Positions 25,628-48,568 of a stretch of DNA of 64,000 nucleotides are shown here, in pieces. A program made the position numbers and the translations under genes. Each line of letters begins with the position of its first letter. The first letter of the stretch is position 1. Where the stretch lies: positions 1 through 64,000 of IMG/VR virus record IMGVR_UViG_3300045988_075249; one strand, written 5' to 3'. The notes below the pieces were generated by a model, which saw only the letters and a list, made by a program, of their open reading frames with translations, did no database searches and was not told where the DNA came from. The DNA comes from a virus.

Positions 25628-26425
25628 ATGACAATTTTTGAACGAGTAAGAGAGCATTATGATGAAGCTCTTACCCATTTCACAGAAGACCAAGTTGTGG
25701 GAATCTTTCTTCAAGGTTCTCAAAACTATGGACTCGATACTCCGCAATCGGATGTAGATACAAAGCTAATTGTAGTTCCTAGCTTTAAAGACATTGCTAT
25801 GAACCGCAAGCCAGTTAGCACAACTCATATTCGAGCAAACGATGAACATACTGACTGGAAAGATATTCGCCTCTACATTCAGACATTCCGCAAACAAAAC
25901 TTAAACTTCCTCGAAATTCTTTACACAGACTTTGCTATTGTTAATCCCATCTATGAAAAACAGTGGAATCGTTTAATTCAAGCAAGAGAAAGGATTACTC
26001 ATTTTAATCCTTATCGTTCTGTTCAAAGTATGAAGGGTATTGCGCTAGAAAAATATCACGCTATGGAGCATGAATACCCAAGTAAAGTTGAAGTTTTAAA
26101 GAAGTATGGTTACGATCCTAAACAACTCCATCATCTTGTTAGAGTAGAAGATTATCTTGGAAGATATATCGCAGGAGAAAGTTATGAGAGTTGTTTAAAC
26201 CCAGGCCCATTCAAACAAGAGCTAATAGAAATTAAGATGGGCAAATATTCTCTCGCGGAAGCTAGGATTGTGGCAGATAAATCTAAGGCTCATGTGGAAG
26301 AAATGGCAGAGTATGCGTATTCTATCTATCCAAATAAAGAAGACGCGGAAGTCAATGCTCTTCTTGATGATGTGCAATATGAGATTATGAAATTAGCGGT
26401 TGAAAGGGAGTTGAATAAAAGATGA
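25628..26425 (+). CDS. Pol-beta superfamily nucleotidyltransferase (GS-x9-DVD motif: GIFLQGSQNYGLDTPQSDVDTKLIV)
   Basis: Canonical minimal NTase-fold motif near the N-terminus; 265 aa; TAG-free. Confidence 0.6.
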   Translation: MTIFERVREHYDEALTHFTEDQVVGIFLQGSQNYGLDTPQSDVDTKLIVVPSFKDIAMNRKPVSTTHIRANDEHTDWKDIRLYIQTFRKQNLNFLEILYTDFAIVNPIYEKQWNRLIQARERITHFNPYRSVQSMKGIALEKYHAMEHEYPSKVEVLKKYGYDPKQLHHLVRVEDYLGRYIAGESYESCLNPGPFKQELIEIKMGKYSLAEARIVADKSKAHVEEMAEYAYSIYPNKEDAEVNALLDDVQYEIMKLAVERELNKR

Positions 26426-27291
26426 TTAAGAATTGGCTCGTGACTGGAGATACACATGGGCGAGTTATGGAGCGCCTTTCGCAGATAGATAGCGATAAGT
26501 ATATTCCTGACGAAACGGCTATCATTATTCTCGGTGATGCCGGAATCAATTACTTCTTGAATAAGACCGATGTAAAAAACAAGAAGTCTATTCAGGCAAG
26601 TGGCTACACTATTTATTGCGTCAGAGGAAACCATGAAATGCGGCCGGAGCGTCTTCCCGCAATTAACTGTGCCTTTGACTTTGAAGTTCAAGGTATAGTG
26701 CGCTATGAAGAGGATTATCCTCATATTAAATATCTTGTCAATAATCAAATCTACAAATTTGGTGATTACTCTGCTCTTGTTATTGAAGGAGCCTATTCAG
26801 TAGATAAATATTATCGCCTTGCTGGAACTGGATTAACTGGGGAAGAGGATTATGAATTAGTCGCCAAGAAAGCTGGATGGTTTAAGGACGAACAGTTATC
26901 CGCGGAAGAAATGAATTTTGCAACATTGGTAATCAAAAATAAGCAAGTTGATTTTGTTCTTAGCCATACTTGTCCGCTCTCTTGGCAACCAGTAGATCTT
27001 TTCTTATCTGCCGTAAACCAGTCAACAGTAGATAATACGATGGAAAAATGGTTAGACTCTTTAAAGAATGAGTTTCAGTGGAAAATTTGGTTGTTCGGCC
27101 ATTTCCATAAAGATAGAATTGAACGACCCCACGTAGAGCAGTTTTTCCAAGATATTCAGCCTATTGATTCTATCTATAATAGATGGTATGGAGAAAAAAC
27201 TATTCACAAAGAATGGTACTTAGAAAAGTCGCCTAATTACTATTTAAAGGGTGATACGCCTTTCGATGAAGATTTAAAGGAGGAGCTTTAA
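26422..27291 (+). CDS. calcineurin-like metallophosphoesterase (GDTHG...GD...GNHE)
   Basis: Metallophosphoesterase motifs I-III are seen; 289 aa. Confidence 0.65.
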   Translation: MIKNWLVTGDTHGRVMERLSQIDSDKYIPDETAIIILGDAGINYFLNKTDVKNKKSIQASGYTIYCVRGNHEMRPERLPAINCAFDFEVQGIVRYEEDYPHIKYLVNNQIYKFGDYSALVIEGAYSVDKYYRLAGTGLTGEEDYELVAKKAGWFKDEQLSAEEMNFATLVIKNKQVDFVLSHTCPLSWQPVDLFLSAVNQSTVDNTMEKWLDSLKNEFQWKIWLFGHFHKDRIERPHVEQFFQDIQPIDSIYNRWYGEKTIHKEWYLEKSPNYYLKGDTPFDEDLKEEL

Positions 27292-28689: not shown

Positions 28690-29963
28690 ATGGCTTATTT
28701 TGGTCTGGTGACTAAGATTCAGAACGTGCGGAAAGATCCGAATTCCGATCGGCTATATCTGGCGGATTGTTTTAGTGAGGGCGTAATCGTAGGCCCTGAC
28801 ATGAAGACCGGAGATCTGGTGCTCTATCTGCCCACCGATGGAGAAATTGAGCGTTGGTTTGGCAATGAGTTTTGCCTTTTCCGCAAGAATGAGGATGGAT
28901 CTGTTCAGGGTGGATACCTTAAAAATAACGGCCATGTGCGGGCTATTAAGCTCCGCGGCAACCAGTCTTCTGGTATTGTCATTGCTCTTGATCGAGTCTA
29001 TGAAAAGTTTGGTGACCAGCATTGGAGTGACGGAGATAAAGTAACTACTATCAATGACAAGGAGTTTTGCCGTAAGTATATTCCTAAGCGAAAGAGCAAT
29101 TCTACTTATGGAGTAAAAACTTCTTACAAAGGACGCAAAGCTGAGGGGATTACTTATCCTGAGTTCTCTATGCACACTGATACTGAGCAGCTTGCATATA
29201 ACTTTGATAAGTTCCGTGAAGGCGATAGACTGAACATGACCCTCAAAATGCATGGCACCTCTCAGCGTTCTATGAATACTTATGCAGAGCTTCCTAATGG
29301 TTTCTTCCGTCGCCTTTTCCATATGAAGAAGCGTACTAAGCAGGCTTATGTTCTTGGAACTCGCCGTTGCGTAGTAACTGAAAACTCTCAGGGATACTAT
29401 GGAAACGATCAGTTCCGTATGCCTCACCATGAAGCTCTAAAACCTCACCTTGAGCCAGGTATGGAAGTTTTTTACGAAGTAGTAGGCTACTATGGGCCCA
29501 ATGAAGAGAATACTATTATGCCTATTGGTGATAATACTAAGGTCAATGACAAGGCTTTTGTAAAGCAGTTTGGTAAACGGTCTATTTTCTCTTATGGCTG
29601 TGAACCCGGTCAGAGCAAAATGTATATCTATCGCATTACCTCTGAAAACGGAGAGAGAGAGTGGACTCCTGACGAAATCACTGCCTGGTGCGATTGGCAT
29701 GGTTTTAATCGCGTTCCTGTAATTGAGAACTTTACATTTACTACTGTTGAGGATCTTTAGGAGCGCATCAATAAATACTTCGAGGATCTTGCGGATCCGA
29801 TCGGCCGCACCCATGTTAAGGAAGGAGTAGTTATCCGAATTGTAAATCGGCGCACCTTTACAGCCTTCAAGTCAAAAACCTTTGAATTTAAAGTTATTTC
29901 TGGGATTGCTACAGAGAGCGTAAATTCTAGTAATATTTCTGAAGATATTCTTGCGGAAATGTA
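28690..29963 (+). CDS. RNA ligase with an N-terminal tRNA-binding (Myf/EMAP-like OB) domain; nucleotidyltransferase motif I KMHGTS; 1 in-frame TAG at 29758
   Basis: N-terminal FGLVTKIQNVRKDPNSDRLYLADCFSEGVIVG...GDLVLYLPTDG fits the tRNA-binding OB consensus (vgkV..v..hpdADkLyv..vd.G). LTLKMHGTS is the K-x-(D/H)-G ligase motif. The ORF continues through the TAG to the TAA at 29961. Confidence 0.5.
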
Positions 29964-30059
29964 ATTTACCCACAAATTTAAAAAAAAAGAGGGTAAAATG
30001 ATTAAATCATCTCCTTTTATTTCTTATATAATGTAGACAATAAAAAGGAGATGATTTTT

Positions 30060-30923
30060 ATGCCAAAAGCATTAGATTTAACTGGTCAAAAGTTTGGAAA
30101 ATTAACCGCTTTACGTAGATTACCAAATCAAGGTCGTAGAACTATTTGGGAATGTTAGTGTGACTGTGGTAATATAATCCCCGTCCGCGCAGAAAATTTA
30201 AGAAGTGGGCATACTACCTCATGCGGATGTAAAAAGAGAGAGCCATCTAAAAAATTTGTTGATTTAACAGGACAGAAATTTGGGGAATGGACAGTATTAT
30301 CAAAAGCAGAGAAAGAGAGCTACTGGCTATGTGAATGTTCTTGTGGAGTAAAAAGAGAAGTATATGCCCCATCATTAAAGAGTGGAAAATCTCTTTCTTG
30401 TGGACATTTATTTAAAAATTAGATTCGTAATCCTATTATAGGAAGCAGATATGGAAATTTAATTGTGTTAGAACAATTTAAAGAAAATGATACTTGGTGT
30501 TGTAAATGCTAGTGCGACTGTGGAAATATCACGATTGTAAAAAGACAAAATTTAACTTCTGGGAATACCTAGTCTTGTGGTTGTATAATCTCAAAAGGAG
30601 AAGCTAGAATAAAACGGATCTTGCAAGAAGCAAATATACCCTTTATTTCTCAATGGACGCCACAGGATTATCCAAATCAAAAATGTAAATTTGATTTTTA
30701 CATAGACAATAAGTATGTAGTAGAGTTCGATGGTCCATAGCATGAAGGTCAAGTAAGTGGATATTATACTAAAGAAAAAGTAGACGCTTTAATGCAAAGA
30801 GACTAGGAAAAAAATAAATATTGCCTATCTCACAATATTCCTTTATATCGTATTCCATACGAATATAGAGATACAATAACCTTAGAGCTGCTAACGGATG
30901 AAAAATTTCTCGTTAAATCTTGA
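30060..30923 (+). CDS. HNH/DUF559-like nuclease with triple LTGQKFG...CxCGN...SCGC zinc-ribbon repeats; 6 in-frame TAG
   Basis: The motifs WEC[TAG]CDCGN, GNT[TAG]SCGC and EFDGP[TAG]HEG place the recoded residue in the conserved DG-x-QH position. The RBS is embedded in a 14-bp hairpin (30005-30018 / 30043-30056). Confidence 0.6.
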
Positions 30924-30958: not shown

Positions 30959-31006
30959 AATAAAATATGATATAATATTTATATAAAGGAAAAGGAGTAT
31001 AACAAA

Positions 31007-31546
31007 ATGTATAGAAAGATACTTATAATTGTTGATGCTCAAAATGATTTCATCACTAGGGCGCTAGGTACAAAGGAGGCGGATGCCGCAGTTCCTAATA
31101 TCGTTGATCTAATTAAACGATTCTGTTGGGAAGAAATTATTTGTACCATGGATACCCATGATGACGATTACTTCGATACTTTGGAAGGAAAGAAACTTCC
31201 TGTTAAACATTGTATTAAGGCAAGCGTGGGCTGGTGTATGGATTCCAGAGTCGTGATTGCGTTGAATAACAAGTTTAATTATTATGAAAAAGACACCTTT
31301 GGCAGTACCGATATGGTTAATGAGGTATATGATTCTCTAAAGATGAAGAATCCAGAGGAAGTAGAAATTCATATCTGCGGATTTTGTACCGATATCTGCG
31401 TTATGGCTAACGCGGTTATGCTTCGTGCAGCGTTGCCAAATACTAGAATTATCGTTCATTCTAGTGCGTGCGCAGGAGTAACTCCAGAATCGCATGAGGC
31501 AGCGCTAACTATTTTCAAAGCTCAACAGATTGATGTGGAGGATTAA
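31007..31546 (+). CDS. pncA: nicotinamidase / isochorismatase-family hydrolase (PncA-like)
   Basis: ILIIVDAQNDF followed by a conserved Cys (ICGFCTDICV): the cysteine-hydrolase signature. Confidence 0.65.
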   Translation: MYRKILIIVDAQNDFITRALGTKEADAAVPNIVDLIKRFCWEEIICTMDTHDDDYFDTLEGKKLPVKHCIKASVGWCMDSRVVIALNNKFNYYEKDTFGSTDMVNEVYDSLKMKNPEEVEIHICGFCTDICVMANAVMLRAALPNTRIIVHSSACAGVTPESHEAALTIFKAQQIDVED

Positions 31547-31549
31547 GAA

Positions 31550-32134
31550 ATGATTAGTCTGATTAACACGCGCAGTCATTGGACAGATGTAATTGAGCAA
31601 AATCATTTTCCCGATGGAACGCTGCATATTAATATGCCGCCCAATTATTTTGATTACGATACCGTTCTTTGGGAGTATGAGAACGATGCAGAACTGTTCA
31701 CTCTAATTTGCGTAAAGGGACACTTTAAAGATTGTCCCTTGAGGCTCGATATGCCATATATTCCTCATGCCATCGCGGCTGCTCGACATGGTAGAGTTGC
31801 AAACACTTGTAATAGAAGTGAAAATTATGTTGGTTATTCAACCAAATTTGGTGATTCCGCGGGAGATTTTTCAATTCTGCACAATTACACAGTAACAGAA
31901 GTTAAAGAGATTGGTTTAGAACTTGGTCTACCGGAGAAATTTATAGAAAAAGTTCCAGAAGATGGATTAACTGGACTCTCAGATGAAGAGAATCTAGGTT
32001 TTTCTTATAAAACTCTTGATAACTTTTTGCTATATCGTATTACTCCTCCGTATGAAGTATATAAAAATATTGAGCAGAGACACAAGAGAAACCTACATAA
32101 AACAGAGGAAATGCCAATCTGCCCCTTCTTTTAA
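31550..32134 (+). CDS. NAD synthetase (NadE)-like C-terminal domain protein lacking the N-terminal SGGxDS PP-loop
   Basis: GYSTKFGDSAGDFSILHNYTVTEVKEIGLELGLPEKFIEKVPEDGL vs E. coli NadE [44 protein letters not shown], recalled from memory. No PP-loop in the first 80 aa. Confidence 0.5.
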   Translation: MISLINTRSHWTDVIEQNHFPDGTLHINMPPNYFDYDTVLWEYENDAELFTLICVKGHFKDCPLRLDMPYIPHAIAAARHGRVANTCNRSENYVGYSTKFGDSAGDFSILHNYTVTEVKEIGLELGLPEKFIEKVPEDGLTGLSDEENLGFSYKTLDNFLLYRITPPYEVYKNIEQRHKRNLHKTEEMPICPFF

Positions 32135-32137
32135 ATA

Positions 32138-32168
32138 AAGAGAGCTTTACGCTCTCTTTATTTTTATA
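32138..32168 (+). terminator. rho-independent terminator (aaagagagc...gctctcttt plus T-run)
   Basis: Seen in the sequence. Confidence 0.65.
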
Positions 32169-32197
32169 TTTTATTATGGTATAATATAATAAAGGAA

Positions 32198-32932
32198 GTG
32201 ATTAAAGTGAGCGTATACGCTATTAGTGATCTTCATGGTATGTTATGTCTTTATCAAGAGGTAAAGAAATTTTTAAAACCAGAAGATAAAGTTTATTGCC
32301 TGGGCGATTGCGGCGATCGGGGACCTGATCCTTGGGAAACCATTAAAGCAGTTGCCGCAGATCCGCAATTTATCTACATCAAGGGTAATCACGAAGATAT
32401 GCTTGTCAATGCAATGAGAGAATATGCGAAGTATGAATGTTTCGACAGAGATTATGCTTTGCTTTGTTTTAATGGAGGGAAAGACACCTTTGAAGGTTGG
32501 ATAAGTGATGGTGCGAACCCTGATTGGTGTAATTATTTAAGTAAGTTACCTACTTATATGGAATACTGCAATAAAGACGATGTTAAAATAGCTCTTTGTC
32601 ATGCAGGGCTTACAGCAGGTTCTAATCCAAATACAAGAGATTTAATCTGGGATAGAGAACATATTTGGGATACTTACTATGAAAATAATACTATCTGTGT
32701 TCATGGACATACTCCTATCCCCGGTATGATTAGAGGCTATAGAGGAAGTCTAAAAAATTTCTTTGGAGCGAGAGAAGACTCTTATGTTGAGGGTGCTTTT
32801 TGGTACTGCAATGACCATAAGGTAAATATTGATTGTGGCAGTTTCTTTACTGGACAAACCGTTCTCTTAAATCTCGATACCTTTGACGAGCATATTTTTA
32901 TGGTTGATATGGAGGATAAACAGTATGAATGA
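32198..32932 (+). CDS. metallophosphoesterase (lambda-phosphatase / ApaH-like; DLHG, GDxxDRG, GNHE)
   Basis: Motifs are seen; GTG start at 32198 or 32207. Confidence 0.6.
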   Translation: MIKVSVYAISDLHGMLCLYQEVKKFLKPEDKVYCLGDCGDRGPDPWETIKAVAADPQFIYIKGNHEDMLVNAMREYAKYECFDRDYALLCFNGGKDTFEGWISDGANPDWCNYLSKLPTYMEYCNKDDVKIALCHAGLTAGSNPNTRDLIWDREHIWDTYYENNTICVHGHTPIPGMIRGYRGSLKNFFGAREDSYVEGAFWYCNDHKVNIDCGSFFTGQTVLLNLDTFDEHIFMVDMEDKQYE

Positions 32933-33770
32933 CCAACTTGGTACTCGTATGAAGGAGTTTTATGAACAGGTACCTAAAACTCGCCTCATGCGCAGAACTC
33001 CAGTAGCAATTAGAATTGATGGAAAAGCATTTCATACCTTCACTAAAGGATTTAAAAAACCATTTGACGAAGTGTTAGTTGAAGCTATGCAAGAAACTAC
33101 AGAGTATTTGTGCAGAAATATTCAAGGATGTGTTCTTGGATATACACAAAGTGATGAAATAACTCTAATTCTTGTTGATTACAAGAAATTAAATAGTGAA
33201 GCGTGGTTTGACTACGAAGTTCAAAAGATGTGCTCTGTTGCAGCATCTATGGCGACAATGGCTTTTAATAAAGCTTTTCATCGAGCGATTGAAGCATACG
33301 AAGTTGATTGGAAGTGTTCTCTAACTCCGCAAAGTGTAGAAATCCGACAGAAACATCAAGAATATATGAAAACTTTACGGATGGCAAGCGCAAAAGGTGC
33401 TATGTTTGATGCACGTGTTTTTAATATCCCAAAAGAAGAGGTAACAAATCTCATTTACTGGCGACAGTTAGATGCCATTCGCAATTCTATTCAAATGGTT
33501 GGTCAAGCAAATTTTTCTCATAGTGAACTTCAGGGTAAGTGCAGTAGTGAAATTTTAGAGATGCTTATTTCCAAAAAGGGGATAGATTGGAATAGTCTAC
33601 CGACCTATTTGAAGAGAGGTTCTTGTTGTATAAAAGACTGCGAAGAAACGGAAAGAGAAGATGGCTCAATTCATTTTAAACACTATTGGTTTATTGACCT
33701 TAATATTCCTCTATTCAAAGATGAAGGTAGGACTTATATTGAAGAACTAATTCAACCAGTTGAGATTTAA
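32925..33770 (+). CDS. Thg1-like protein (tRNA-His guanylyltransferase / 3'-5' polymerase family)
   Basis: VAIRIDGKAFHTFTKGFKKPFDE and YTQSDEITLILVD match the Thg1 motifs VVVRLDGRNFHRF...FAKPND and YGQSDEYSF, recalled from memory. The ATG at 32925 overlaps the upstream stop. Confidence 0.6.
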   Translation: MNDQLGTRMKEFYEQVPKTRLMRRTPVAIRIDGKAFHTFTKGFKKPFDEVLVEAMQETTEYLCRNIQGCVLGYTQSDEITLILVDYKKLNSEAWFDYEVQKMCSVAASMATMAFNKAFHRAIEAYEVDWKCSLTPQSVEIRQKHQEYMKTLRMASAKGAMFDARVFNIPKEEVTNLIYWRQLDAIRNSIQMVGQANFSHSELQGKCSSEILEMLISKKGIDWNSLPTYLKRGSCCIKDCEETEREDGSIHFKHYWFIDLNIPLFKDEGRTYIEELIQPVEI

Positions 33771-33782
33771 AATAAAAATCTT

Positions 33783-33830
33783 TTGATATTTTATAAAAAA
33801 TATATTATAATATTTATAGAAAGTTAAATG
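33783..33830 (+). promoter_or_regulatory. class-B promoter (TTGATA-17-TATAAT plus leader TATAGAAAGTTAAATGAATGGAGG)
   Basis: Seen in the sequence. Confidence 0.55.
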
Positions 33831-33846
33831 AATGGAGGAAAGCAGC

Positions 33847-34353
33847 ATGACTATTGAAGTAAAAGTTATGGTCGGTATCCCCGGTAGTGGGAAATCTACT
33901 TGGGCGCATAAAGAAGCTGAGTTGCTTGAAATGGATGGTTTTCATACTGCTATTATCTCCCGTGACGAGATAAGAAAATCTTTCGTTGGTGATGGAAGTT
34001 ACTTCGGAAAAGAGAATGATGTATTCGAAGAATTTGTCCGTCAGATTAACGAATGTCTCGAAATCGGAATTGATTACGTCTTTGTTGACGCAACTCATAT
34101 TTCCCAAGGATCAAGAGCAAAGCTATTGGGTAGACTGCGGCCGGACGGAAAAACAAGACTTGTCTTCGAAGTTTGCGATTGCGGGATTGATACCTGTATC
34201 GCTCGCAATAGCTTGAGAGAAGGATTTTCTCAAGTCCCAGAGTCCGCAATTAGGAAGATGGCTAGAAACTATAGATCTCCCACTCCCGCAGAATTTAAAC
34301 TTTATAAGTACGGATTTAAAGAAGTAAGAATTAATCATCATGGAATGGAGTGA
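33847..34353 (+). CDS. P-loop polynucleotide-kinase-like protein (GIPGSGKST)
   Basis: Walker A at the N-terminus. Its position directly before a phosphoesterase parallels Pnkp-type 5'-kinase / 3'-phosphatase end-healing enzymes. Confidence 0.5.
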   Translation: MTIEVKVMVGIPGSGKSTWAHKEAELLEMDGFHTAIISRDEIRKSFVGDGSYFGKENDVFEEFVRQINECLEIGIDYVFVDATHISQGSRAKLLGRLRPDGKTRLVFEVCDCGIDTCIARNSLREGFSQVPESAIRKMARNYRSPTPAEFKLYKYGFKEVRINHHGME

Positions 34354-34359
34354 TAAAAC

Positions 34360-34923
34360 ATGATTTTTCTAACTTCAGATTGGCACTTTAATCATTCGAA
34401 AGAGTTTATCTATAAACCTCGCGGATTTGATTCTGCTGAGGAAATGAATAGTGCTCTTGTTGAACGGCACAACTCTCTTGTAACCTCAGAAGATGATGTA
34501 TATATTCTTGGAGATTTATGTTTAGGTGGGGCAGAAAGCCTTGAGAAAAGCAGAGAACTTATTAGTTCTATGAATGGAAAACTTCATGTGGTTTTTGGAA
34601 ATCATGATACACCTAAACGTCGGCAAATGTATGCAGAGTTGCCGAATGTAGTTGAAACTGCATGGGCGCTTAGTCTTAACTACAAAAAATATCATTTCTA
34701 TATGTCTCATTTTCCAACTTTAACTGGAAATCTTGAAAAAGAGAGTCTCCATGAAATGATGCTTAATCTCTACGGTCATACGCATCAAAAATCTGATTTT
34801 TATGAGGATAGACCCTATATGTATCATGTAGGAGTTGATTCACATAGCTGTTATCCAGTTTCTCTTGATGCAGTTATTGATGAAATGAAACTAAAGGTAA
34901 AGGAGTGCGTTGATATGCTATGA
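34360..34923 (+). CDS. calcineurin-like phosphoesterase (SDWHFNH, GDL, GNHD, GHTH)
   Basis: Motifs are seen; 187 aa. Confidence 0.65.
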   Translation: MIFLTSDWHFNHSKEFIYKPRGFDSAEEMNSALVERHNSLVTSEDDVYILGDLCLGGAESLEKSRELISSMNGKLHVVFGNHDTPKRRQMYAELPNVVETAWALSLNYKKYHFYMSHFPTLTGNLEKESLHEMMLNLYGHTHQKSDFYEDRPYMYHVGVDSHSCYPVSLDAVIDEMKLKVKECVDML

Positions 34924-35060
34924 ATCCTATTTTCTGGATTTTAGTTGTATTAGCTCTTGTTGCTCTATGGTTTTTGTTAAATTTTACATTTAGAAAGATT
35001 GGAAAATTCTTCATTAAAGTTTATTATAAAAACCAAGAAGAACTTAGGAATTATAAATAA
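34920..35060 (+). CDS. small single-TM membrane protein (46 aa), possible partner of the SPFH protein
   Basis: The ATG overlaps the upstream TGA; hydrophobic stretch IFWILVVLALVALWFLL. Confidence 0.35.
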   Translation: MNPIFWILVVLALVALWFLLNFTFRKIGKFFIKVYYKNQEELRNYK

Positions 35061-35063
35061 TTT

Positions 35064-35960
35064 ATGAAAAAGAGTGGAATTATCGGCGGTATTGTAATTG
35101 CTCTGGTTTTGATTTTTGGTCTAATCACCGCGATTACTTGTCTTGAGCGAGTGCCTACTGGTTATGTTAGTGTTGTATATAATATGAGCGGTGGTGTCGA
35201 CGGAGAGGTTCTTACCCAAGGATGGCATCTGGTCTCTCCCACCAAGAAGGTAACTACCTATTCTATCGGTCTTGAGCAGTCTTATTTGACTTCTGAAGAT
35301 AAGGGCGATTCTCCTAATGACGAGAGTTTTAACGTACCTACTAGCGATGGCAAAACCGTAAAGGTAAACCTTGAGTTCTCTTACCGATTTGATGAAGATC
35401 GTGTTGCAGAAACCTTTACTCTATTCAAGGGTAAGGATGGCGAAACCATTAAGGATACCTTCATTAAGCCTAAGATTGTAGCATGGACTCAGGAAGTTAC
35501 AGCTAACTATCCTGTAACTGATATTTTTGGCGACCAGCGTACTGCAATCAATGCTGAACTTGACGTTTATCTGCGTGAAAAGTTTGACCAGTATGGTATC
35601 ATTATTGATACTGTAAACTTTACTGATATTTCTGTTGATGCTGAAACCGCAGAGGCTATCCAGAAGAAGGTAAATGCTCAGCAGGAGCTTGAGCTTGCCA
35701 ATATTGAGGCACAGACTGCAAAGGTTCAGGCTGAGAAGGAAAAGGAAGTCGCTGAGATTCAGGCCGAGCAGGCGCTAATTCAGGCTCAAGCGCAGGCCGA
35801 TGCTCTTGAAATTGCGGCGCAGGCCGAAGCTGAGGCAAATGCAAAGATTGCCGCTTCTCTTACTCCTGAGCTGATTGAGAAGATTAAGTATGAACAGTGG
35901 AATGGTCAGATGCCTTCTACTATGGCCGGAACTGATTCTTCTATTTTGATTACTCCCTAA
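35064..35960 (+). CDS. SPFH/Band-7 (prohibitin/HflKC-like) membrane protein with an Ala/Glu-rich coiled-coil tail
   Basis: N-terminal TM, SPFH core (VSVVYNMSGG...GWHLVSP...IDTVNFTDI), EA-repeat C-terminus. Confidence 0.7.
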   Translation: MKKSGIIGGIVIALVLIFGLITAITCLERVPTGYVSVVYNMSGGVDGEVLTQGWHLVSPTKKVTTYSIGLEQSYLTSEDKGDSPNDESFNVPTSDGKTVKVNLEFSYRFDEDRVAETFTLFKGKDGETIKDTFIKPKIVAWTQEVTANYPVTDIFGDQRTAINAELDVYLREKFDQYGIIIDTVNFTDISVDAETAEAIQKKVNAQQELELANIEAQTAKVQAEKEKEVAEIQAEQALIQAQAQADALEIAAQAEAEANAKIAASLTPELIEKIKYEQWNGQMPSTMAGTDSSILITP

Positions 35961-35966
35961 CTTTAA

Positions 35967-36000
35967 CCCTCCAGATTCTTAATCTGGAGGGTTTCTTTTT
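35967..36000 (+). terminator. rho-independent terminator (ccctccagatt...aatctggaggg plus T-run)
   Basis: Seen in the sequence. Confidence 0.7.
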
Positions 36001-36648: not shown

Positions 36649-36882
36649 TTGTTTTATTTATTAATTGGATTTCTTATTGGCATATTAGGAGTGCCGGTCT
36701 TAGACAGATTAGTTGACCTTATATCTACTATTATTGAACTTTTAAAGGCGAAAATTAGCGTGAAAATAGTAGAATGTAACGTAAAAATCAATGAATTAAA
36801 AGATGGTACGCAGAATACTCATACTAGAGTAATAGGTTTTACCACTACACCAAACAAAGAAAAGGAAGAAGATTATGAGTAA
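36649..36882 (+). CDS. small membrane protein (77 aa), TTG start
   Basis: Supplied ORF; a hairpin ccttcttct...agaagaagg lies immediately upstream. Confidence 0.4.
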   Translation: MFYLLIGFLIGILGVPVLDRLVDLISTIIELLKAKISVKIVECNVKINELKDGTQNTHTRVIGFTTTPNKEKEEDYE

Positions 36883-38131
36883 TGAAATTCGATTCTATGA
36901 TACTTGTTCTTTGTTAAATGCTGGAGAAAGCGTATTTGATAAAGAAGAAAAGTTTGTAGTTTCATCAATCACTTTTAAAGAGCTTGAAAGAATTAAAACT
37001 GCTAGCAATAAAGATCTGGATGTAAAGTATTCTGCTCGTTTGTTATTGCATCTGTTTGAAGAACATCCCGATATGTATGATGTTGTTGTCCATAGATTAG
37101 AGTACGAAGAAGCAATTAAAGAGCAATCTCTTGACATAACAGATGATACAAGAATATTATCAGACGCTTTTTGGTACAATAATAAAGTTAGAGTAGACGA
37201 AACAGTCTTTGTAACAAATGATTTAAGCCTAAAAACAATAGCAAATTTATTCTTTGGTTCCGGAGAAATAGAAAGCGTTGAATCAGATAATGATGATTAT
37301 AGTGGCTATGTAGAAATAAAAGCAGATGATAGTTCATTGGCATCTTTTTATCAAGATCCGAGTTTCAACCATTACAATCTTCATATTGGAGAATATTTAA
37401 TTATTCGAGACCTTGATGGGAAAATTGTTGATATAAGGGTCTGGACAGGAGAAAATCATAGATACCTTAATTATAACAACTTTGATTCTATTTGGTTTGG
37501 TAATATTACACCATATAAAGAGGATGTTTATCAAAAACTTTTATTTGATAGTTTAAGTAATAATAGAATTACTTTGATAAAAGGCCCCGCTGGTTCTGGT
37601 AAAACAATTATTAGTCTAGCTTATTTAATGTCTAAACTAGATAGAGGAGATTTGGACAGAATTGTCGTATTCTGTAATACAGTAGCAACAGCAAATAGTG
37701 CTAAATTAGGTTATTTACCCGGAACCCGCAATGAAAAGTTACTCGATTCCCAAATTGGAAATCTATTGATTTCTAAATTTGGCGGTAGAGATGGGGTAGA
37801 ACAACTTATTGAGACAGATAAGTTAGTCCTTCTACCCATGAGTGATATTAGAGGTTATGACACATCTGGAATGAAGGCTGGTATCTATATCTCTGAAGCA
37901 CAAAATCTTGATAGAACACTAATTAAACTCGCTCTCCAAAGAGTTGGCGAAGATTGTGTTTGCATTATAGACGGCGATGCTAAAACTCAAGTTGATGATA
38001 TTCATTTTGCAGGAAGTAACAATGGAATGAAACGTGTTTCTAAAGTTTATAGAGGTCATGATATTTACGGAGAAGTTGAACTTCGTAACATTTATAGATC
38101 TAGAATCGCGCAAATAGCTGAATATATTTGA
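36875..38131 (+). CDS. PIN-domain + PhoH-like ATPase (YlaK-like)
   Basis: N-terminal PIN-like fold (FYDTCSLL...D); Walker A GPAGSGKT; PhoH-type C-terminus. Confidence 0.65.
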   Translation: MSNEIRFYDTCSLLNAGESVFDKEEKFVVSSITFKELERIKTASNKDLDVKYSARLLLHLFEEHPDMYDVVVHRLEYEEAIKEQSLDITDDTRILSDAFWYNNKVRVDETVFVTNDLSLKTIANLFFGSGEIESVESDNDDYSGYVEIKADDSSLASFYQDPSFNHYNLHIGEYLIIRDLDGKIVDIRVWTGENHRYLNYNNFDSIWFGNITPYKEDVYQKLLFDSLSNNRITLIKGPAGSGKTIISLAYLMSKLDRGDLDRIVVFCNTVATANSAKLGYLPGTRNEKLLDSQIGNLLISKFGGRDGVEQLIETDKLVLLPMSDIRGYDTSGMKAGIYISEAQNLDRTLIKLALQRVGEDCVCIIDGDAKTQVDDIHFAGSNNGMKRVSKVYRGHDIYGEVELRNIYRSRIAQIAEYI

Positions 38132-39041: not shown

Positions 39042-40448
39042 ATGACTAATGCTCAAATTATTTGGAAATACTTTAAAGGCAAAGGTTTTAGTGATTGCGG
39101 AATTGCCGGTTTAATGGGTAATCTTTATGCCGAAAGTGGTCTTAATTCTATTAACTTATAGAACACCTATGAAAAAAAATTAAAAATGACCGACGCAGGA
39201 TATACCTCCGCAGTTGATGATGGAAGGTATAAAAACTTTGTAAAAGATGGGGCGGGATATGGATTGGCTCAATGGACATTTTGGAGCAGAAAACAAAATT
39301 TGCTTTAGTTCTGTCAAAGTCGAGGTAAATCCATTGGAGATTTAAATACTCAATTAGATTTTTTATATTAGGAGTTAATTACAAGTTTTTCTAGTTTAGT
39401 TAAAATTTTGATTTCTGCCACTTCTGTCACAGAAGCCTCTACCGCAGTATTACTCTAGTTTGAAAGACCTTCAGACTAGAGTTTTTCTATGCAACAAAAG
39501 AGAACAAGTTATGGTCAATAGTATTATAATAAATTTGCTAACATTTCAAATATAGTTGAAGGAGGTAATAAAATGAAATATAGTGATAGCAATAAACCAC
39601 TTCAATGCATGATGACTAATAGCACTTGCTATAAATAGACACGCACTATGCAAGTTAAAGGAATTTTATGGCATAGTACAGGCGCGAATAATCCTAATTT
39701 AAAAAGATATGTTCAACCTAGCGATAATGATCCCAATTATAATACTTTAATAAGTAAAATAGGAAAGAATACAAGTAAAAATGACTGGAATCATGTATCT
39801 ATTCAAGCTGGGCTAAATTGCTGGATTGGCAAGCTAGCAGATGGAACAGTAACAACAGTATAGACAATGCCATGGAATTATCGTCCTTGGGGATGTGGTT
39901 CTGGAACTAAAGGCTCTTGCAATAATGGATGGATTCAATTTGAAATTTGCGAAGATGGATTAAATGATGCAGCCTATTTTAATAAGATTTATGAAGAGGC
40001 TTGTTAGATTACTGCTTACCTATGCAAGATGTATAATATAAATCCATTAGGAACAACTACCTTGAACGGTATTACCGTCCCAACTATTTTATGTCATGCT
40101 GATAGCCATAAGTTAGGATTAGGCTCTAATCATGCAGATGTAAACCACTGGTTTCCAAAATTTGGAAAAAGCATGGAAACAGCAAGAACAGATGTTTACA
40201 ATTTAATGTCAAATGTTTAGGAGGATGATGAAGATATGACTGATGAAAAATTCGCTGAATTTATGAATACTTGGCTAACCAATAAAGCTAATGAAAAAGA
40301 GACATGGGGTTCCGATAATCTCGAATGGGCTAAGACAAATGGAATTATGGCCGGCGACAGCGCTGGAAGAATGATGCCAAACAAATTCTGTACTAGATTA
40401 GAAACAGTAACTATGATTAGAAGATTGGCGGAAAAGCTAGGACTTTAA
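39042..40448 (+). CDS. endolysin: N-terminal phage-lysozyme-like domain + Amidase_2 (PGRP-type) domain + C-terminal SLH domain; 10 in-frame TAG
   Basis: GIAGLMGNLYAESG...GYGLAQWTFW (lysozyme-like), ILWHSTG...HADSH (amidase) and a C-terminal SLH-like stretch TWGSDNLEWAKTNGIMAGDSAGRMMPNKFCTRLETVTMIRRL. All supplied ORF fragments are in frame 0. Confidence 0.6.
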
Positions 40449-47656: not shown

Positions 47657-48568
47657 ATGATTATAGGATTATTATTAATAGCTATAATCGGGTTAATAAT
47701 TTATATCTATTATCTCAAAAAGCAAACCCTTGAAGTAGTTTAGATTAACACAGATAATCAAAGAAAAAACGCTGAAATAGAAAAAGAAATAGCACATAAT
47801 AGAGAAGTGTTATCTAACATAAAAAATAATATAACATTTGAGAACGATATTCTTTCTTCTTTATTAAAATCTTAGGAAGAAATGCGGGAAAGTGCTTAGA
47901 AACAAGCTGATGAAGCCTATTAGGCACGCGTCTCCGCGCTTGTAAAATCCTACAAAGAAAAAGAATAGGAACTTTCTTTGACTTTTGATGCTAAAAATCA
48001 AGATTTGCTAAAGAAAATTTCTATTGAAGCCGGGAAATTAGCTGATTTATAGGCTAAGTAGCTTTCCTATATTTAGGCCAAATAGAGATAGGAAGAAATT
48101 GACTCTAATCAAGATTATTATCGTCTTGCTCTTGATGAAATAGATATTAATGATATTACGTTATTGCGCGAATTACAACCAAGATTTGTAAAGAAAGAAA
48201 GTATAGATAAACTAATATGGGAAGTATATTATAAGCCAGCTTATGATATTTTAATGGCCCATTTGTTTCCCAAGGCAGTTAAATATTGCGGTATCTATAG
48301 AATAACTGATTTAACTACAGGCAAGTCCTATATTGGACAATCGGTTGATATAAAAGAACGATTTAGATAGCATATTAAATCTGCTTTAACCTATGGAAAG
48401 GTAACTAATAAGTTATACTCTGCTATGCAGAAATCTGGAGTTCATAATTTCGTGTTTGAAGTCTTAGAAGAAGTAACCAGAGACAAACTAAACGAGAGAG
48501 AAACCTATTGGATTGAGTTCTATAAGACTAAAGAATTAGGTCTTAATGGAACTAAAGGAGGAGCTTAA
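47657..48568 (+). CDS. GIY-YIG nuclease preceded by an N-terminal TM helix and a Q-rich coiled coil; 11 in-frame TAG. It may be two genes, with the nuclease from 48164
   Basis: GIYRITDLTTGKSYIGQSVDIKERFR[TAG]H is the GIY-YIG core. One frame runs from the ATG at 47657 to the TAA at 48566 when TAG is read as sense. Confidence 0.45.

Follow-up and report, generated by a model that had tools for sequence, protein, structure and literature searches.

The 64,000 nucleotides (nt) analysed in this study, positions 1 to 64,000 of the IMG/VR virus record IMGVR_UViG_3300045988_075249 and referred to below as the window, carry a gene for a Thg1-like protein (TLP). By its sequence, the encoded protein is a TLP of the bacterial type and not a eukaryotic Thg1. 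Its catalytic activity and substrate range were inferred; the protein is probably an active, template-dependent 3'-5' RNA polymerase, and we consider it reasonably likely that it serves the upkeep of tRNA 5' ends, either those of the 29 tRNAs of the phage, those of the host, or both.

A preliminary description of this DNA had placed the protein in the Thg1 superfamily, and the profile search which it had named as the refuting test put the protein inside this superfamily. Pfam Thg1 (PF04446) was matched over profile positions 3-130 of 130 with an E-value of 1.7e-30 and 106.1 bits (cut-off 29.2), and PHROG 4717, annotated as "tRNA-His guanylyltransferase", with an E-value of 4.6e-87. The score for Pfam Thg1C was slightly below its cut-off (23.5 vs. 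26.3 bits), and no model of NCBIfam matched. The best sequence match among solved structures was the TLP of Bacillus thuringiensis (BtTLP, PDB 4kgk; E 1.4e-57), followed by the archaeal TLP of Methanosarcina (MaTLP; 1e-13) and eukaryotic Thg1 proteins (1e-9 to 1e-7). The Pfam Thg1, PHROG, and BtTLP matches greatly exceed what chance would produce. A profile built from 48 members of the clade yielded 248.6 bits for BtTLP, 70.5 bits for MaTLP, and 46-49 bits for eukaryotic Thg1. The predicted fold points in the same direction. With an AlphaFold (AF2) monomer model of the protein (predicted local distance difference test, pLDDT, 84.8; predicted template modelling score, pTM, 0.83), Foldseek returned BtTLP chains first (E 7e-24; identity approximately 37%), and all matches with an E-value of 0.001 or lower, i.e. 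the top 32, were Thg1 or TLP chains, with best target-normalised template modelling scores of 0.81-0.83.

The functional residues of BtTLP and their numbering were taken from the structure paper (PMC3701042) and compared with the window protein. The metal-binding carboxylates D32, D77, and E78 correspond to D30, D75, and E76 of BtTLP (D29, D76, and E77 of hTHG1), the stacked arginine pair R30 and R180 to R28 and R147, and K45, S76, and M191 of the activation site to K43, S74, and M158. In the alignment of 48 sequences, D32, S76, D77, E78, R30, and R180 are invariant, position 45 is occupied by lysine or arginine only, and at least 90% of the sequences share M191. The gene being an inactive relic is extremely improbable: we found no point in favour of this, the open reading frame (ORF) is intact, none of the catalytic residues has been lost, and thousands of homologues are strongly conserved.

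In eukaryotic Thg1, the histidine of the HINNLYN motif stacks on the anticodon base G36 (PMC6471195). This motif is not present in the window protein, which reads AIRNSIQM there with Ile185 at the position of the stacking histidine; in the alignment, HINNLYN was found only in the three eukaryotic sequences. A neighbor-joining tree, for which the outgroups were partial sequences rebuilt from HMMER alignments, set eukaryotic Thg1 and MaTLP apart from every bacterial and phage TLP, that of the window included, in 100 of 100 bootstraps, and BtTLP grouped with the TLP of Bacillus phage Bcp1. The phylogeny suggested in the preliminary description thus agrees with sequence, profiles, predicted fold, diagnostic residues, and the missing HINNLYN in identifying the protein as a TLP, as had been proposed there.

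Relatives of the window TLP are numerous. More than 8000 clusters at 90% identity are related, all 8000 scored candidates passing an E-value of 1e-5, and 319 stretches of IMG/VR encode such relatives. A 99% identical TLP lies on a metagenome contig of 129 kb, and TLPs with 86-88% identity are found on IMG/VR contigs of 104-146 kb with the same gene order as in the window. The closest cellular TLPs (47-68% identity) come nearly all from gut Clostridia, including isolates and one complete Lacrimispora chromosome. In GenBank, 164 phage records hold TLP homologues with 40-59% identity, and those listed are without exception phages of at least 88 kb; megablast of positions 31000-36000 against GenBank phages gave no matches. 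The many relatives and their strong sequence conservation suggest selection on the TLP, which we counted in favour of a role in the upkeep of tRNA 5' ends.

For the start of the gene (Table 1), the program-made ORF list also offered a TTG further upstream, at 32883. The N-termini of 47 homologues align to the ATG at 32925 and favour this start. As the gene is free of TAG codons, the TLP is unaffected by the TAG read-through of the phage described below.

Table 1. Features of the window relevant to the TLP gene and its surroundings
Feature	Positions	Strand	Basis and remarks
Array of 29 tRNA genes and one transfer-messenger RNA (tmRNA) gene	1101-19825	+	Likely substrate pool
tRNA-His(GUG) with encoded G-1 (5271), U1·C72 (5272/5343), C73 (5344), and encoded CCA	5271-5347	+	ARAGORN, Rfam
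RlaP-family nucleotidyltransferase	25628-26425	+	Pfam RlaP 24.8 bits (cut-off 23), PHROG 388
Metallophosphoesterase, 4-nt overlap with the RlaP stop	26422-27291	+	Pfam Metallophos, PHROG 1649
RNA ligase, 424 amino acids with TAG 29758 read through	28690-29964	+	PHROG 968, E 1.5e-41
Nicotinamidase	31007-31546	+	
Half-length NAD synthase	31550-32134	+	
Terminator-like hairpin upstream of the phosphoesterase-TLP pair	32133-32163	+	Consensus scan only
Promoter-like site after the terminator-like hairpin, upstream of the phosphoesterase-TLP pair	32163-32190	+	Consensus scan only
Lambda-phosphatase/ApaH-like metallophosphoesterase	32198-32932	+	Pfam Metallophos, PHROG 246 NinI-like, PDB 1g5b lambda phosphatase
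Shine-Dalgarno sequence GGAGGA, 7 nt upstream of ATG 32925	32912-32917	+	Read from sequence
TLP gene, 281 amino acids	32925-33770	+	Stop TAA 33768-33770
Codon of D32, first metal-binding carboxylate	33018-33020	+	BtTLP D30, hTHG1 D29
Codons of S76-D77-E78	33150-33158	+	BtTLP S74-D75-E76
Predicted helical hairpin insert, residues 120-158	33282-33398	+	Alignment to BtTLP, AF2 model
Codons of R180 to M191, stretch RQLDAIRNSIQM	33462-33497	+	R180 = BtTLP R147, M191 = BtTLP M158
Promoter-like site between TLP and kinase, 11/12 matches	33783-33811	+	Consensus scan only
P-loop kinase of the PNK/PSTK/KTI12 class, Walker A GIPGSGKST	33832-34353	+	Pfam AAA_33 E 5e-16, PHROG 505
Calcineurin-like metallophosphoesterase	34360-34923	+	Pfam Metallophos_2, PHROG 547 E 7e-44
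PIN-PhoH protein	36875-38131	+	

For the proposed role, BtTLP provides the biochemical model. This enzyme is template-dependent, prefers 5'-truncated tRNAs 5-160-fold, and is not confined to tRNA-His (PMC3061083); template dependence and the preference for truncated tRNAs are known for BtTLP and MaTLP only (PMC3061083). By analogy to BtTLP and MaTLP, the window enzyme would bind a tRNA via acceptor stem and T arm and not via the anticodon, activate the 5'-monophosphate end with ATP or GTP, and then add nucleoside triphosphates pairing with the 3' strand (positions 72, 71, and so on; in tRNA-His also C73, for position -1) until the stem is full. Candidate substrates would be tRNAs that have lost 5' nucleotides through mis-cleavage or the action of nucleases, as well as tRNA-His without the guanine at position -1 (G-1). 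RNase P products carry the needed 5'-phosphate, so that mis-cleaved tRNAs from the densely packed array are plausible direct substrates, and 5'-hydroxyl ends left by nucleases would presumably need the neighboring kinase first. The TLP may thereby work alongside the nearby RNA ligase, the polynucleotide kinase (PNK)-like kinase, the phosphoesterases, and the RlaP nucleotidyltransferase acting on 3' ends.

TLPs recognise a broader range of substrates than Thg1, and for some of them non-tRNA substrates have been proposed (PMC6471195). The window TLP might then extend or activate the 5' ends of small RNAs, or of broken RNAs before ligation. Its helical hairpin, conserved in the clade, could be read in this sense: AF2 confidently predicts approximately 39 residues where BtTLP has approximately 8, and P135, Q136, V138, Q141, H144, Y147, L151, and A154 are kept in at least 90% of the window clade. 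Across TLPs of Clostridia and phages, the inserts at this site range between 15 and 59 residues and are unrelated in sequence; the hairpin is a variable surface element of the TLP family. Since known TLPs depend on a template strand and on an acceptor/T-arm structure like that of a tRNA (PMC6471195), and the phage invests heavily in tRNAs (29 genes), non-tRNA RNAs as the substrates are rather improbable.

The first three pairs of the acceptor stems were examined for mismatches. Among the 29 tRNA genes of the window, three have a mismatch at 1:72, and the pairs 2:71 and 3:70 are matched throughout. To obtain the tRNA arrays of relatives, related contigs were fetched via a neighboring marker protein; these contain 20-39 tRNAs per 21 kb, and their 692 tRNAs display the same mismatch pattern as the window. 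The mismatches belong to the initiator (C1·A72, which is canonical), to the Gln-like CUA suppressor with G73 and a pyrimidine-pyrimidine pair, and to tRNA-His. Identity rules explain the mismatches of the initiator and the suppressor; that of tRNA-His is unexplained. A general tRNA 5'-editing as in mitochondria was considered and rejected on the basis of these counts in the window and in the 692 related tRNAs. For bacterial TLPs, Rao et al. had regarded editing as unlikely, as bacterial tRNA genes lack 5' mismatches (PMC3061083). Further features of the array are CCA ends encoded in all 29 tRNA genes, spacings of just 3 nt between some genes (8631/8635), a tRNA-Ile(TAT) of 95 nt (1101-1195), and the tmRNA gene (7487-7802) with the tag DNDYFENYLAA.

 

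ARAGORN located tRNA-His at 5272-5347 with the anticodon GTG (Rfam tRNA 56.1 bits; gathering 29), and the preceding base is a G opposite C73. All 28 other tRNA genes have T at position -1, so the G at 5271 is not a chance base, and the encoded G-1 reported in the preliminary description is confirmed. With its U1·C72 mismatch, which the preliminary description had not noted, this tRNA-His departs from the bacterial standard, and in the minimum-energy fold G-1 and U1 are unpaired. U1·C72 also occurs in four related contigs (L087-L090) whose tRNA-His genes vary elsewhere, and more distant phages have U1·U72 (L117, L130) or U1:A72 (L110); an exact-pattern search for the window tRNA-His in IMG/VR gave no match. 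In 12 related contigs (L091-L093, L095-L097, L099, L101, L102, L106, L128, L132), tRNA-His has T at -1, one base past the CCA of the preceding tRNA, together with G1:C72, C73, and CCA. At least six of these contigs are confirmed carriers of orthologous TLPs.

A G-1:C73 signal normally shifts RNase P cleavage, and the combination of C73, U1·C72, and a G-1 unpaired in the fold may weaken this signal in the window tRNA-His. The TLP could thus be a dedicated enzyme for adding or restoring G-1, which after an RNase P cut at the ordinary site places G-1 opposite C73 for charging by HisRS. The G-1-less tRNA-His genes beside orthologous TLPs fit this explanation, as does the chemistry of BtTLP, which adds G-1 opposite C73 with a kcat/KM of 5500 M-1 s-1, equal to yeast Thg1 (PMC3061083). 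Several observations make it unlikely as the dedicated function. G-1 is encoded here, and the T at -2 fits the pattern of T before the cut seen in the other 28 tRNAs. Also, a wholly normal G-1 tRNA-His is present in TLP carriers, namely the contigs 3300032167_000002 and 3300021254_000022 and Bacillus phage G, while T at -1 with C73 and CCA is found in tRNA-His of phage T5, Serratia phage CHI14, and Vibrio phage D479. The T5-like tRNA-His occurs in 347 Escherichia/Salmonella records, and neither genus is among the ten genus names listed for the 164 TLP-matching phage records; T5-like phages are essentially without TLPs. Finally, the kinetic preference of BtTLP is for the repair of truncated tRNAs (PMC3061083). 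The general rule that a TLP exists because the phage tRNA-His lacks G-1 was therefore discarded, as carriers show all three types of tRNA-His and T5, CHI14, and D479 lack G-1. G-1 status of tRNA-His and TLP presence do not predict each other, which mildly favours a broader role.

The preliminary description had concluded from the encoded G-1 that the enzyme acts in general 5'-end repair rather than in G-1 addition. Its argument fails in view of the BtTLP chemistry, the U1·C72 pair, the G-1-less sisters with TLPs, and the missing correlation just described. Of the conclusion, repair is plausible from the gene neighborhood, and G-1 addition stays a possible reaction of the enzyme.

This neighborhood comprises the RlaP enzyme, the RNA ligase, the PNK-like kinase, and three metallophosphoesterases, all located within 8 kb of the TLP on the same strand, which fits a tRNA 5'-end repair. 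RlaP enzymes add one or two nucleotides at the 3' ends of cleaved tRNAs (PMC12776372). Against Pfam RNA_ligase (cut-off 27), the ligase scores 19.6 bits without and 34.8 bits with read-through of the TAG at 29758; in PDB, no sequence match was found for it. The kinase matches PHROG 505 polynucleotide kinase with an E-value of 6e-20 and PSTK in PDB, and its matches to NCBIfam PSTK and bacterial Pnkp are weak and far under the cut-offs. All three phosphoesterases are calcineurin-like, one of them being lambda-phosphatase-like. The gene block around the TLP is syntenic in approximately 20 related phage contigs, the pair of kinase and phosphoesterase (34360-34923) is kept 3' of the TLP in related phages (approximately 22 loci), and a separate phage of 220 kb with a 69% identical TLP has RlaP and RNA ligase 2-4 kb from it.

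Linkage was analysed with iterated hidden Markov models at 166 TLP loci, of which 70 remained after dereplication at 70% TLP identity. In 25 of these 70 loci, a calcineurin-like phosphoesterase is located no more than 2 kb from the TLP, in 24 of them on the same strand, and the density of these genes is 1.19 per 10 kb near the TLP vs. 0.43 at 2-10 kb (approximately 2.8-fold, without correction for shared ancestry). Enrichment beside the TLP was seen for calcineurin-like phosphoesterases only. Kinase, RlaP, and ligase genes are common in the wider TLP region, and a tight linkage of any of them to the TLP, i.e. within 2 kb, was not supported after dereplication.

Several points weigh against a role of the TLP in tRNA 5'-end upkeep. 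Kinase, RlaP, and ligase are no denser within 2 kb of the TLP than at 2-10 kb, and around the TLPs of Fnu1, Bcp1, and 2L372D no RNA-repair genes are annotated, the repair neighborhood being a feature of the window lineage. The TGA stop of the upstream phosphoesterase (32198-32932) overlaps the TLP start by 8 nt; where genes are rearranged in other phages, this phosphoesterase stays with NadE, so that it may belong to NAD metabolism instead, and the overlap as a sign of functional coupling is weakened. A host nuclease that trims tRNA 5' ends, and with it the source of 5'-truncated tRNAs, is hypothetical, and in the literature we found neither enzyme activity nor RNA 5'-end data for any phage TLP. 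Moreover, tRNA-His is a possible substrate, including addition or restoration of G-1. Taken together, the gene context supports a role in RNA-end metabolism in the window lineage and does not represent a universal operon.

The enrichment of phosphoesterases also bears on the explanation that the TLP is the polymerase half of a 5'-editing system, in which a partner nuclease, possibly a neighboring metallophosphoesterase, would strip mismatched or damaged 5' nucleotides such as U1 of tRNA-His before the TLP rewrites them from the 3' strand, in the manner of DdiTLP3 in amoebal mitochondria. The retention of U1·C72 in the window and the four related contigs despite other differences in tRNA-His, the U1 opposite U72 or A72 in more distant phages, and the phosphoesterase within 2 kb of the TLP would agree with this. 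The conserved feature is however U1 and not the mismatch itself, mismatches are few, with two of three fitting identity rules in the window and likewise in the related tRNAs, a nuclease role of the metallophosphoesterases is only putative, and the enrichment figure ignores shared ancestry. Overall, we regard such an editing system as very improbable. A combined variant appears improbable as well: TLP and linked metallophosphoesterase might rewrite tRNA 5' ends by converting U1·C72 to G1:C72 and then adding G-1, and supply the missing G-1 in the sister phages. If true, this would be the first known pathway of tRNA 5'-editing or post-transcriptional G-1 addition in a virus or in the bacterial world.

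Compared with known systems, the window TLP is closest to BtTLP (4kgk/4kgm) in best sequence, profile, and fold match, in the catalytic residues, and in domain order. BtTLP differs in being encoded by a bacterium and in its short segment at the hairpin site, whereas the window TLP is phage-encoded and its function is predicted from sequence and model. Eukaryotic Thg1 (human 3otb, Candida albicans 3wbz, yeast 5xox) has the superfamily fold and the three carboxylates in common with the window protein, but possesses HINNLYN with the stacking histidine and adds an untemplated G-1 opposite A73. DdiTLP3 of Dictyostelium, acting in amoebal mitochondria, is also a TLP and rebuilds 5' nucleotides of the acceptor stem from the 3' strand; its substrates are numerous tRNAs whose genes encode mismatches at positions 1-3, whereas in the window only the mismatch of tRNA-His is unexplained. 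With an RNA ligase, a P-loop kinase, and phosphoesterases in one region, the phage can be compared to the RNA repair of T4 Pnkp/Rnl1 and bacterial Pnkp. Those systems seal breaks in the anticodon loop without a 3'-5' polymerase, and the kinase and phosphoesterases of the window are putative end-healing enzymes assigned by weak homology.

Phage genes annotated as "tRNA-His guanylyltransferase" (PHROG 4717: Bc431v3 gp143, Bcp1_164, phage G gp378, Fnu1 gp147) belong to the same family, and with the 164 GenBank records the window TLP is a member of an already annotated kind of phage accessory gene. Compared with the TLPs of GenBank phages, it falls into a distinct and very abundant clade that comprises gut phages and Clostridia and has its own hairpin insert. 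Phage genes of the Thg1 family were called candidates for unusual tRNA modification, of phage or host tRNAs, in 2013 and 2018, and in 2021 Iyer et al. listed Thg1 of jumbo phages among sporadic enzymes restoring 5'-end nucleotides (PMC7824862). For no bacterial TLP is a physiological substrate known (PMC3061083). Phages that possess both a TLP and a complete set of tRNAs are a compact setting for finding such a substrate, and the three variants of tRNA-His beside orthologous TLPs (G-1 with a normal stem, G-1 with U1·C72, and no G-1) provide a natural comparison. These variants, the linkage to phosphoesterases, and the clade-specific hairpin are the leads of value.

The phage of the window is a large gut phage (GC content 37%). 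Its genes include those for a lysozyme-amidase, a RecJ-like protein, and gyrase, and it uses TAG as a sense codon. The suppressor tRNA(CUA) at 18859-18933 has C1·U72 and G73 and looks Gln-like. Several ORFs arise only with TAG read-through, and those at 39042-40448, 55639-57390, 47657-48568, and 28690-29964 then give full Pfam domains; the TAG counts in read-through ORFs are 10 for lysozyme plus amidase, 13 for the RecJ-like protein (DHH/DHHA1/RecJ_OB), 11 for GIY-YIG, and 1 for the RNA ligase. As to transcription signals, the promoter-like sites found in the consensus scan (Table 1) were no more numerous than in a shuffled control.

Among the genes between the RNA ligase and the TLP, the ORF annotated as NAD synthase matches only the C-terminal half of its family (profile 114-238 of 242); its first approximately 72 residues are unrelated and without a PP-loop, and relatives such as L084 have a full NadE of 242 amino acids. 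The ORF at 30051-30923, located between RNA ligase and nicotinamidase, encodes 290 amino acids with three repeats (LTGQKFG...CxCxCG) and six in-frame TAGs, and had no Pfam match. Directly upstream of the RNA-repair genes, the stretch 19955-24294 encodes a DUF2828/DUF7788 protein and, behind it, two ORFs carrying the repeat and shoulder domains of the major vault protein; the same pair is also located near TLPs in L051, L081, L262, and L274.

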